A stretch of DNA of 64,000 nucleotides from an uncultured Planctomycetaceae bacterium (GCA_963813715.1 CAWFAK010000005.1:1152001-1216000), one strand, 5' to 3'. Shown: positions 53,676-58,761, counted from the stretch's first letter. Notes: generated by a model from the sequence alone, not told the origin. Translations and numbers: made by a program.

Positions 53676-54743
53676 CCTCCAACGTACCCGTCCTAATCGT
53701 GAGTCCCAACCGGCAGAGATCTCTTGCCCAGGGTCAGCGTAGGAGGTTTTCCCGAGCCGCCCGATCCATCTTCTTGAACCCCAGCGGGGCGACAGAGGAT
53801 AGCCCGGTGTGTAACCCTGGGATCTCGGACGGTGGATTTCGCCTTGAGCCGCGCGAGGGGCGGCAGAGGCAACGTCGGGCCGGTGCGCCTTCACGCAACT
53901 CGTCGCAAAACAAAACTCTGTCGCCCCTCCCGGGGCTTTGGAGATTCTCTTCGGCCTCCGTTACCCAGCGTTGAAACGCTGGGCTATTTTCTGACGCCCC
54001 TGGGCGGGGCTCGAATTCAGATTCGATGCGGCAGTCCACTCGCTGACGGCCCGCGTCGGCGATCCCGGAATCCGAGAAAACTGATCTTGGACGGATCTCG
54101 GTTTTGTGGCTGAATGGAGAGAGCGGATCTCGGCGCGAGCGATTGAGTGCGCACGGAGGGCACAGACAGTCCAGAGTCCAATGTCCAAAGTCCAAGGTCG
54201 AGAGGGACGGGACACAAATCACCCTCACCCCGACTCTCTCCCATCCGCAAAGCGGACGGGCGAGGGGGAAGAGAAGTCCGCAGGCAAGCGCAGCCCGCGA
54301 GGGATAAAGATCCCCGCCGGGGACGAATAAGGACGCCCGCCGCGGGGTGGGGATCCTTTTTTCACACAGAGTCGAGGGAAAAAAGATCCCCGGCGCGGCG
54401 GGACAAGTTGTCCCGCCGGGTCCGCCAAAAGTGGTCCCGCCGTGACGGGACTCTCACAATTGATATAAGGGGGGTGGACCCACCGACGCGAGTCCCACCG
54501 GTCAGTGTCGATCCGTTGAGTGGCGATCCGGCCCGGCAATCGGGACGGGACTCGGGGAAGTCCAATGTCCAAAGTCCAAGGTCCAACGTCGCAATTCCGA
54601 CTTTGGACTTTGGACCGCGGGACTTTGGACCCACGCTGGGACGGGACACGTTGTTTCACCGAGAAAAGCCCGGAGAAAACGGCCCCCTCACCCCGGCCCC
54701 TTGTATGTTGAAAAAAGATCAATCTGCGCATTTGATGGTGACA

Positions 54744-54935
54744 GCTGTGGGAAGGCTTGCGAAGCGTAGCGAAGCAAGGTTTCCCACAGCGGCCGGCGGT
54801 AGATCGTCCGCCCTCAGGTCCAAGAAGACCGTGGGAGAGCTGGATCGCCGCCGGTCTCATGAGATCAGCCCGAACAGCCGTCAGAGCCGTCGTGGCGCCA
54901 GTCGCCGCTCGAGCTCGCATTCGCAAGGACGGGAC
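54744..54935 (+). ncRNA. Predicted bridge RNA of IS110 copy 1 (ends approximate)
   Basis: 5' hairpin 54744-54790; target-binding loop with GGGAGAG (54833-54839); donor-binding loop with ACAGCCG (54874-54880) and GCAAG (54923-54927). Confidence 0.8.
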
Positions 54936-54941
54936 ATCGTC

Positions 54942-55894
<953 letters not shown>

Positions 55895-56294
55895 CTCTTG
55901 AAAAGAAACACAGCCGCTCTCCCGTCTTGCCGGCGTCCGCCGCTTCGGCGGTCAGTGCCGGCGCGGACTCAATACGGGGAGAGGGGGGGAGATGTGGATG
56001 GGGTCTTGGGATCCTGGGCCTGCGCTGTGCTCCGACCCAGGCTATAAGCTGTCGCGCCCCGTTGGGGCTGGAGAAGATTGGGACGGCATGGGACGGGACA
56101 CGTTGTTTCATCGAGCGTATCCCGGCAGATTCGACCGCCGTCCCTAATCGATTGCCGCCGACGGATGGTGGGCGTGCGCCCGCCCGCGGCGGATTTGTCC
56201 CACCCTACGGGATCGCGGATGAGCGAAGAGGCCCCCTCACCCCCGGCCCCTTGTATGTTGAAAAAAGGTCAATCTGCGGCATTTGATGGGGACA

Positions 56295-56486
56295 GCTGTG
56301 GGAAAGCTTGCGAAGCGTAGCGGAGCAAGGTTTCCCACAGCGGCCGGCGATAGATCGTCCACCCCGAGGTCCCAGAAGACCGTGGGAGAGCCGGATCGTC
56401 GCCGGTCTCATGAGATCAGCCCGAACAGCCGTCGGAGCCGTCGTGGCGCCAGTCGCCGCTCGAGCTCGCATTCGCAAGGACGGGAC
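56295..56486 (+). ncRNA. Predicted bridge RNA of IS110 copy 2 (ends approximate)
   Basis: Same fold as copy 1; GGGAGAG 56384-56390, ACAGCCG 56425-56431, GCAAG 56474-56478; compensatory stem change. Confidence 0.8.
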
Positions 56487-56492
56487 ATCGTC

Positions 56493-57444
<952 letters not shown>

Positions 57445-57817
57445 CTCTTGAAAAGAAACACAGCCGCTCTCCCGCAAGGGGCGAGGGGAAAAGCCTCGGG
57501 GGACGGGACGGGACACGTTGTTTCACCGAGCGTGGCCCGAGGAATTTGGCCCTCACCCATCGGAAGCCGACGGGCGAGGGGGAAGAGACCCAACTCGCCA
57601 AAGGGCGGGAGAGTCAGGTGCTCCGCGCGAAGGGTTGGGTGTTTCGGCTGGTTGGCCAAAGACTGACGTCTGCGGGCCCTTTGCCGCAGATTCCGAACGG
57701 GTAAGACGATGTTTATGAGGTCGGCGCTGTCGGCGGACGTGGCTGATTTTGCGGCCCGACATTCGACACGCGGTCGGTCGCACGGCCGCCTGCGAGCGCG
57801 GCTCGGCCGATCTCACG

Positions 57818-58761
57818 ATGGCTCAACTGACCGAAGCACAAACCCAGCAAATCATCGACCAGTGCCGCGACCACGTCGGCCAGCTGGCCGAGACGTTTCG
57901 CACGGCGATTGGGGTGCGAGATTCGTCTGTCGGCCGGAGAGCCGAGCAGCGTCGGCGAGGCGGGCGGGCTGGCCGAGTTTCAGGTGCCGGGCCTGGCCGT
58001 GGGGATTGCCGTCGGCGATGAGGGGCTGATCGTCCTCATTCCGCAGACGTTGCCGCTGCCGGCGTGGTATCGCCAGCCCGACGTCAGCCAGAACAATCAG
58101 CTGCAGACGTTCGCGCACGAGCTGTCGACGGTGCTGCTGCCGGCCGACCTGGAGTCGCAACGCTTTGCGGCGACGGCGACCGAGAACCTGATCGAAGTGG
58201 CGCAGAGCGCGAAGGCCACGCCCTCGGCCAAGATGATCGAGCTTTCGGTCTTTCACACCGACGGCACTCACGAGGCGGCGGTGGCCAAGTTGCTGGTGAT
58301 CGTGCCGGTCGCCGAGCCGCCGGTGACGCAGCCGGCAGAAGGCTTGGGAGCGGGCGCACTCGAATCCATCGAAGAGTCGGAAGAGTTCGACGAGGGACTG
58401 GCGGAGGATGGCGAGGAGTTGATTCGACGAGGCCGGCGACGACGGCTCTGCTCAAGAGGCGGCCGCGTCGGCCGATGCGGCGCTGCGGGCCCTGCGAGTT
58501 CTCAACGTGCCGGTGACCGTCAGCGTGCGGCTGGCCGAGCGAAAGATGTCGTTGGGGACCGTGGTGGCGCTGGTGCCGGGATCGCTGGTGACGTTCAACA
58601 AGTCGTGCGAGGCCCTGCTCGACCTGTACGTGAACAATCATCGCTTCTGTCAGGGCGAGGCGATCAAGATCGGCGAAAGCTTCGGCCTGAAAGTGTCGAA
58701 GGTCGGCGTGGACGAGGAACGCCGCGAGCGGATCGTTGAAGGCCGAGGCTCCCGGGACTGA
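57818..58761 (+). CDS. FliM/FliN C-terminal (SpoA) domain protein; frameshifts near 57910 and 58440
   Basis: C-terminal VPVTVSVRLAE..PGSLVTFNK..LDLYVNN..GEAIKIGESFGLKV; acidic linker. Confidence 0.75.

Follow-up and report, generated by a model that had tools for sequence, protein, structure and literature searches.

An IS621-type bridge RNA predicted in the left end of an IS110-group element inserted in REP-like repeats of a soil planctomycete

The closest described relative of the system reported here is IS621 of E. coli, in which, according to those parts of the primary accounts that cover its organisation (PMC11208160, PMC11208158; PDB 8WT6), the bridge RNA is encoded in the left end of the element, on the recombinase strand, and consists of a 5' stem-loop followed by a target loop and then a donor loop, with CT as the core. 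The 5' strands of the loops read the DNA's bottom strand, whereas its top strand is read by the 3' strands; the right donor is CTTGTAT and is read by AU, a 2-nt bulge, a G wobble and CAAG; there are handshake positions; and the promoter is split across the circle junction. Each of these has a counterpart in the planctomycete element described here, the promoter as a consensus match and the left target guide as a tentative assignment, and a bulged A in an outer stem and the G residues flanking the guides on both sides may correspond to the flipped-out A and syn-G positions of IS621, a correspondence drawn by inference rather than by alignment. The recombinases are homologous (E about 3e-42). 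Unlike IS621, the planctomycete system has a right target guide of 7-8 nt rather than 4, left guides that in both loops appear to read only the first core base, via a U, a GC-rich REP-like target, a recombinase of 317 aa and a soil planctomycete host, and it is known from sequence alone.

Three further systems bear on the comparison. ISCro4/IS622 (PDB 9T56; preprint 10.1101/2025.05.14.653916) has a homologous recombinase, the comparison being one of proteins. ISPpu10 and ISPpu9 of Pseudomonas putida are presented, in the relevant portions of their sources (Durrant Extended Data Fig. 10, PMC11208160; 10.64898/2026.03.19.712850; PMC12288879), as IS110 elements that insert into REP sequences under bridge RNA guidance, as we propose here, but with another host, repeat family and guide sequences. 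IS1111-group elements with a seekRNA or bridge RNA share the recombinase family and the two-loop logic, but in the figure that depicts them the RNA comes after the gene in a long right end (PMC11208160, Extended Data Fig. 10b), whereas here it precedes the gene and the right end has 22 nt. According to passages of the same paper (PMC11208160), RNAs of this sort, numbering in the thousands, were predicted in 2024 across the IS110 elements; our literature search found no paper joining 'bridge RNA' and 'Planctomycet'.

The window, by which we mean the whole 64,000-nucleotide stretch analysed, contains two of the nine full copies of a 1.2-kb element that are present in this genome at 95-100% identity. 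Ends were defined by aligning the copies with 80 bases of flank each: 9/9 start with CT-TGTATGT and end with ACAGCCG-CT, followed by CTCCC(A/G), and 9/9 share the CT core at both junctions. Copy 1 is 1217 bp long counted with one core, intact copies being 1218 bp, and copy 2 lies 330 bp downstream of it. The element and its ends are laid out as follows.

54700 to 55918, plus strand: IS110-group element, copy 1, ends set by aligning the genome copies.
56250 to 57468, plus strand: copy 2 of the element, 95% identical to copy 1.
54700-54701 and 55917-55918: core CT of copy 1.
54693-54706: left junction, CCGGCCC-CT-TGTAT.
54693 to 54699, plus strand: left target CCGGCCC, inside a REP-like repeat.
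54702 to 54708, plus strand: right donor TGTATGT.
55910 to 55923, plus strand: left donor ACAGCCG, core CT and right target CTCCC.

The non-coding left end extends over 54700-54941, 242 nt from the core to the ATG, and the right end is short, its left donor ending 22 nt after the stop codon. A sequence-only reading of this DNA had given the length of the left end as 240 bp; the ATG is at 54942, not 54943. Every string quoted in that reading does lie where it was said to lie.

Within the left end we predict an RNA composed of three modules.

54744 to 54790, plus strand: 5' stem-loop of the bridge RNA, main helix with compensatory change in 16/16 pairs (alignment A4).
54793 to 54854, plus strand: target-binding loop module, made up of an outer stem (A54801 bulged), two guide strands and an inner hairpin at 54817-54830.
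54869 to 54933, plus strand: donor-binding loop module; outer stem CCCG/CGGG (54869-72/54930-33) and an inner hairpin at 54884-54916.

The outer stem of loop 1, CCGGCGG(U)/(G)CCGCCGG (54793-54800/54847-54854), is lengthened by GAUC/GAUC and its inner stem is GGUC/GACC (54817-20/54827-30); the inner stem of loop 2 is GAGC/GCUC. With stems in square brackets, loop 1 reads [GAUC] G UCCGCCC U CA [GGUC..GACC] GU GGGAGAG CU G [GAUC] and loop 2 reads [CCCG] A ACAGCCG U CA [GAGC..GCUC] GC AU UC GCAAG GA [CGGG], the 5' strands of both loops being alike in having one linker base, a 7-base guide, a U facing the core C, and CA. In RNAfold predictions for the free RNA, parts of the two target guides pair together.

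The proposal of a 5' hairpin and two stem-closed internal loops is upheld by folding and by covariation across homologous left ends. A MAFFT alignment was made of eight left ends, those of both copies in the window, of copy 6 and of five relatives whose protein identity goes down to 59%. In it 95% of cells are paired, compared with 34-50% in slid controls, and both-side changes occur in 14/50 pairs against 4.7+/-1.6 in shuffles (0/500 reach 14). A covariance model built from this alignment was used to assemble alignment A4, in which, among 38 distinct sequences, 93.7% of cells are paired and 44/50 pairs show compensatory change (slid controls, 32-43%); because A4 was fitted to the structure of the model its pair counts lean toward that structure, and the independent eight-sequence alignment points in the same direction. 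The bridge RNA of copy 2 (56295-56484) carries the left target guide variant UCCACCC and a compensated stem change, and all helices are kept in the RNA region of both window copies. Separately, one contig from a metatranscriptome run (X17, depth 6) has a 45-nt skip joining 54740 to 54786, which removes the 5' hairpin (54741-54785); either the 5' stem-loop is missing from a natural variant, or an inverted repeat has given rise to an assembly artefact.

The putative guides within the two loops are assigned as follows.

54807 to 54814, plus strand: left target guide, UCCGCCC, with U54814 facing the core C (wobble).
54832 to 54839, plus strand: right target guide, (U)GGGAGAG, pairing with top strand CT+CTCCC(+A/G).
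54840 to 54841, plus strand: target-loop handshake guide, in which C54840 is complementary to donor position 7 (G55916) but not to target position 7 (C54699).
54874 to 54881, plus strand: left donor guide, ACAGCCG, with U54881 facing the core C; equal to the right end at 55910-55916.
54919 to 54927, plus strand: right donor guide, AU-[UC]-GCAAG, in discontiguous pairing with CTTGTAT.
54928 to 54929, plus strand: donor-loop handshake guide, in which G54928 is complementary to target position 7 (C54699) but not to donor position 7 (G).

The right target guide gives the clearest correspondence with a flank. GGGAGAG (54833-54839), proposed as the exact complement of the core plus right target, pairs 7/7 with CT-CTCCC in all 9 copies, and U54832 extends the pairing to the next base, which is A or G. 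Among 20000 dinucleotide shuffles of the left end, ACAGCCG occurs in 430, GGGAGAG in 735 and both in 11, a test that did not demand placement within the correct loop strands. For relatives of the element, guides were read from fixed columns of the model and the right end was taken as the first occurrence of the element's own donor-guide 7-mer 900-1250 nt downstream; from 39 aligned rows, removal of two duplicates and of ten in which the donor 7-mer was absent (four of these lacked sequence room or a donor loop) leaves 27 distinct elements in which it is found. CT follows the donor 7-mer in 26/27, the exception being a chance first match in the relative L075, whose second match is followed by CT-GTCCC and is 7/7 to its guide. 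The right target guide is 7/7 Watson-Crick paired in 20/27 and has at least 6 positions paired in 24/27, the misses being L071 (4), L026 (4) and the first match of L075 (3). There are 21 different right-target 5-mers among the 27 relatives, and the guides match 4.48 of the 5 non-core positions at their own sites compared with 1.42 at the sites of other elements, where 1/684 cross-pairs is perfect. Guide and target therefore covary among homologues, the right target guide tracking the flank through 21 sequences.

The donor loop behaves in the same manner. The identity of ACAGCCG (54874-54880) with the left donor, noted from the first, is exact (55910-16), and relatives have seven different donor 7-mers, each matched by its own left donor guide. 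For the right donor guide, GCAAG (54923-54927) had been described as complementary to CTTGT with one wobble, which is correct as far as it goes; the pairing extends beyond this, in that AU (54919-20), separated from the G wobble and CAAG by a two-base bulge, adds pairing with the AT of TGTAT, so that the whole of CTTGTAT is read discontiguously. The published cryo-EM description of IS621 has A157-U158 paired, U159/U160 flipped out, G161 in a wobble with dT12 and C162-G165 paired (in the relevant section of PMC11208158). Right donor guide and right donor change together in L053 (ACGAG/CTCGT) and L075 (AUAUUAG/CTAATAT).

Handshake guides are an addition to the earlier account. The cognate handshake partners are mismatched in this element (C:C and G:G), and the base following each 3' guide would instead pair with the other DNA. 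Among relatives the target-loop handshake base pairs with donor position 7 in 27/27 (C:G, A:T and U:A all occurring), and the donor-loop handshake base pairs with target position 7 in 22/27. Such an arrangement favours strand exchange, according to the passages on this point in Hiraizumi et al. 2024 (PMC11208158).

The assignment is weakest at the left target guide, the least secure of the guides, whose support lies at the level of the family. In this element UCCGCCC makes 5 Watson-Crick pairs and 1 wobble of 7 at each main type of occupied site (4 Watson-Crick and 1 wobble for UCCACCC of copy 2), so that the 6/7 counted in the sequence-only reading, with one G:U, is arithmetically right; it does not rise above background for C-rich sequence, the level of pairing being no better than in cross-controls when guide and target are both C-rich. 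Registers one base to either side score about equally in this element. Left ends of relatives were located by the last four bases of the right donor guide, giving 27 distinct elements; L017 and L052 (left end decayed), L058 (TT core), L057, L070, L074 and the contig-edge loci L055, L076 and L024 were left out of this count, as was L032, which was mis-picked by the end-finding rule and scores 8/8 by eye. At least 5 of 7 Watson-Crick pairs are present in 18/27 elements compared with 111/698 cross-pairs, and offset 1 is the commonest register. The closest relatives with other loop sequences (L025, L065 and L077) also favour offset 1, with mismatches mostly distal, and the register originally chosen (offset 1) is thus the one favoured by relatives without being proven for this element. 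Scoring by best register across elements was tried and dropped (diagonal mean 7.2 of 9, off-diagonal 6.2); because it does not discriminate, Watson-Crick-only counts on more elements were used.

One of the relatives omitted from these counts, L058 (G029:C32), has the left junction CCACC-TT-TGTATG, and in its left target guide UU takes the place of the CU that serves as core guide in others. No right end was found for it within its locus. It is a possible natural TT-core element.

The insertion sites belong to REP-like hairpin repeats, as had been proposed. The target unit can be written CCCTCACCCC(G/T)(G/A)CC(C)-CT-CTCCC, loop, GGG(A/C)GAGGG, with insertion occurring within the 5' arm of the hairpin, and within the window the family is represented at 54660-54699, 55919-55990, 56225-56249 and 57469-57500. 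The seven bases preceding the left CT in the nine copies are CCCGGCC (three copies), CCGGCCC (two, both window copies), CCCGACC (two), CCCCGAC (one) and CCGTCCC (one). One search pattern finds 44 unoccupied ..CC-CT-CTCCC repeats in the genome, with CTCAC just upstream in 34. A single genome site, CCCGCCC-CT-CTCCC, would pair perfectly with the left target guide, and the element therefore appears to tolerate one mismatch. In 17/44 empty sites the 3' arm of the hairpin is GGGAGAG, identical to the right target guide, and the guide would thus compete with the hairpin partner. A conserved motif, GGGACGGGACACGTTGTTTCACCGAGAAA, is located about 40-60 nt upstream of 6/9 insertion sites and downstream of some; in the window it is found at 54640-54665, 56090-56115 and 57500-57530, and it is also present in the flanks of other copies, from which the REP target seems to be part of a longer composite repeat unit.

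No empty orthologous site was obtained from two same-genus genomes (the copy 6 site is occupied in G125 too, and the flanks are repeats), and paralogous empty repeats were therefore used instead. Soil contigs place the element beside other flanks, including one site that is empty in this genome. Some relatives depart from the usual arrangement of ends. L018, with 84% protein identity, conserves the recombinase gene and the right end ACAGCCG-CT-CACCC, and its left end is swapped for unrelated sequence with long inverted repeats, retaining only the last ~10 nt before the ATG; it may be another insertion, or a copy without the RNA, and it was excluded from the comparison. In L017 and L052 the gene and the right end are ~130 nt farther apart than in the other elements, a GC-rich hairpin forms part of the right end, and the left terminus is no longer CTTGTAT, yet the guides are intact.

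An alternative interpretation of the left end is that it is a mere leader controlling expression of the recombinase through promoter, translation or stability, and that the loop matches are by-products of short terminal repeats and of a C/G-rich target. The background-level match of the left target guide would fit such a leader, as would the frequency of GGGAGAG near insertion sites, where it forms the hairpin 3' arm at 17/44 empty repeats. A leader does not account for the 3' strand of loop 1 changing with the flank in relatives with unrelated targets (21 sequences, 20/27 at 7/7), nor for the 5' strand of loop 2 changing with the right end through seven donor 7-mers, and the handshake covariation is not predicted by it; we regard it as highly improbable. 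Observed here are the anatomy, helices that covary, guides that covary with flanks and ends, the catalytic motifs of the recombinase and the many insertions in one repeat family. With a probability of about 0.9, an IS621-type bridge RNA is encoded in the left end, on the strand that also carries the recombinase gene. The target-loop and donor-loop layout first read from this DNA thus holds, including in relatives where loops and flanks change together.

The gene that follows encodes a recombinase of the expected type, having a RuvC-like DEDD domain at its N-terminus and, at its C-terminus, a Tnp domain with the catalytic serine.

54942 to 55894, plus strand: recombinase gene (DEDD_Tnp_IS110 + Transposase_20), stop codon at 55892-94; frame broken, with a base missing after 55534.

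Pfam searches with the intact copy L006 identify DEDD_Tnp_IS110 (PF01548, E 3e-25) and Transposase_20 (PF02371, E 3e-17), both above cut-off. The transposase chains of ISCro4 and IS621 are the best solved relatives, at E about 3e-42 each, with ISCro4 (PDB 9T56) the best PDB match (E 2.9e-42, residues 7-307 aligned). Motifs that line up with the ISCro4 chain are GID (D12), EAT (E56), KTDxxDA (D98, D101) and SG (S237).

The 317-aa frame is intact in 3/9 genome copies and broken in 6/9, both window copies included, which confirms the broken frame implied by the earlier reading. One base is missing after 55534 in copy 1, and two are missing after 56679 in copy 2. It is possible, if rather doubtful, that the RNA gene is real and the system is dead at this locus, the two window copies being decaying, immobile relics. 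Besides the two gaps, this is suggested by the left target guide of copy 2, which has drifted (UCCACCC; 4 Watson-Crick and 1 wobble), and by the extra G at 55534 in contigs of all four public runs examined, from which the break in copy 1 is either private to that copy or an assembly error. Weighing against decay, every helix is kept in both copies, with a compensated change in copy 2; the element is found beside other flanks in soil contigs, including at a site that is empty here; and the three copies that retain the 317-aa frame could act in trans. If the frameshifts are real, the window copies could act only with recombinase from one of those three. The 1-2-base indels in 6/9 copies lie at differing places, and they may be assembly errors rather than decay, the genome being 82.6% complete in 18 contigs and its relatives long-read MAGs.

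Assignment of the RNA to the plus strand is favoured by several features. Joined in silico, the ends of the element form a candidate promoter, TTGAAA-17-TATGTT, across the joint, with a 9/12 consensus match.

55898 to 55903, plus strand: TTGAAA in the right end, candidate -35 of the junction promoter, a consensus match only.
54704-09, plus strand: TATGTT, candidate -10 of the junction promoter, complete only at the circle junction.

Such a candidate promoter is present at the same position in 6/10 elements examined, or 7 if an 18-nt spacer is allowed, and a scan of 54600-55000 found no sigma-70 consensus promoter in the integrated left end. An internal candidate in the left end, TTGAAA-17-TTTGAT (9/12), was dropped, having no A at position 2 of the -10 and being negative in the promoter scan.

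Public runs give some view of where the element occurs. It is present in 20 runs from 17 studies, all of soil or rhizosphere, and 6 of these are metatranscriptomes. In 3 metatranscriptome runs, each from a different study, contigs span both the left end and the gene; such contigs give no strand, ends or level, and DNA carry-over into RNA libraries is possible. No circle-junction joint was seen among the contigs of the public runs examined, where contig gaps prove nothing. A joint of 54678>55918 in two RNA runs was considered as excision and set aside, as it looks like other repeat copies.

It could be argued that the functional transcript derives from the opposite strand as an sX15-like antisense RNA, and that the plus-strand structure is merely its mirror image. 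The Rfam family sX15 matches the minus strand of both copies weakly (E 0.29 and 0.91, below gathering score), both strands of a homologous remnant have been detected as RNAs in Xanthomonas pXCV183, and the minus strand folds well too (z -3.3 for the minimum free energy of 54744-54933). The z-score is lower on the plus strand (-4.6), and U:G and G:U pairs of the helices, such as the U:G at column 57/105 in 7/8 sequences of the MAFFT alignment, would become A:C on the other strand. Only on the plus strand do the split donor guide and the polarity of the guides (5' strand in the sense of the left flank, 3' strand antisense to the flank on the right) fit IS621, and the candidate junction promoter points rightward. 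For these reasons the plus strand is favoured as the RNA strand and a minus-strand transcript in its place seems very unlikely, while an antisense RNA could exist beside the bridge RNA.

The sX15 match has a bearing on the Xanthomonas RNAs themselves. When 54000-58000 was scanned against Rfam 15 at E up to 10, no bridge RNA family came up and all matches were sub-threshold, the sole ones being to sX15 (RF02234) on the minus strand at 54780-54894 and 56328-56480. In Xanthomonas, sX15 is encoded on plasmid pXCV183 at 116378-116536 (+) and its complement asX7 at 116528-116459 (-); both were seen on northern blots in 2011, and ten homologues in Stenotrophomonas maltophilia K279a were noted by the authors. 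Our covariance model matches pXCV183 (NC_007507; L078 899-1054) on the minus strand at 116398-116553 with 35.5 bits (E about 8e-9, in a 3.3-kb search), and in that match a target loop is present together with a donor loop (ACAGTTG) and a left end reading CT-TATCTG. After it comes an open frame starting MNGIGIDVCKAKL, which stops early and whose start looks, by eye, like an IS110 recombinase N-terminus; a separate annotated 98-aa protein at 390-686 of L078 gives no Pfam call. asX7 corresponds exactly to the target loop, from outer stem to outer stem. Taken together, the minus-strand match, the loops and the span of asX7 indicate that sX15 appears to run antisense to a bridge RNA remnant of the IS110 kind, and asX7 appears to be a fragment of the bridge RNA, observed on those blots. 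A literature search found no paper linking sX15 or asX7 to IS110. The Xanthomonas remnant, with sX15 and its complement asX7, is also a lead toward an antisense control layer for bridge systems, comparable to RNA-OUT of IS10, which we consider unlikely. To our knowledge a control layer of this kind is so far undescribed for bridge systems. For annotation, the result would mean that one of the sRNA families in Rfam represents a bridge RNA's reverse strand, which is a small but practical point.

By analogy with IS621, transcription, the ends of the RNA, protein binding and recombination can be envisaged as follows. The excised circle would assemble a promoter across its joined ends, from which the bridge RNA would be transcribed; the first internal loop would bind a REP-like genomic site, and the second would bind the joined ends of the element itself (ACAGCCG-CT-TGTAT). 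Strands would then be swapped at the shared CT by a DEDD/serine recombinase tetramer, with the base after each 3' guide pairing in a handshake with the incoming strand of the other DNA.

The lineage is a common one. The covariance model matches 33/151 sampled genomes of the bacterial family to which the window belongs, in 28/92 genera, and finds the same RNA upstream of relatives in several other phyla, in an Elusimicrobiaceae MAG, a Nitrospinaceae MAG, a gut MAG and Microbulbifer. The locus had been put forward as a new bridge recombinase system; judged by its sequence, it is instead one more member of the IS621-type family, a known kind, in which features of IS621 are matched one by one save for the left target guide and those features accessible only at the bench. 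Understanding of the bridge mechanism is unchanged by this element. Its contribution is a natural, well-documented bridge RNA whose target is GC-rich and whose right target guide has 7-8 nt, together with a compact recombinase of 317 aa. Its ~27 relatives with matched guides, flanks and ends constitute a natural guide-target table, including one in which a possible TT core is read by UU.
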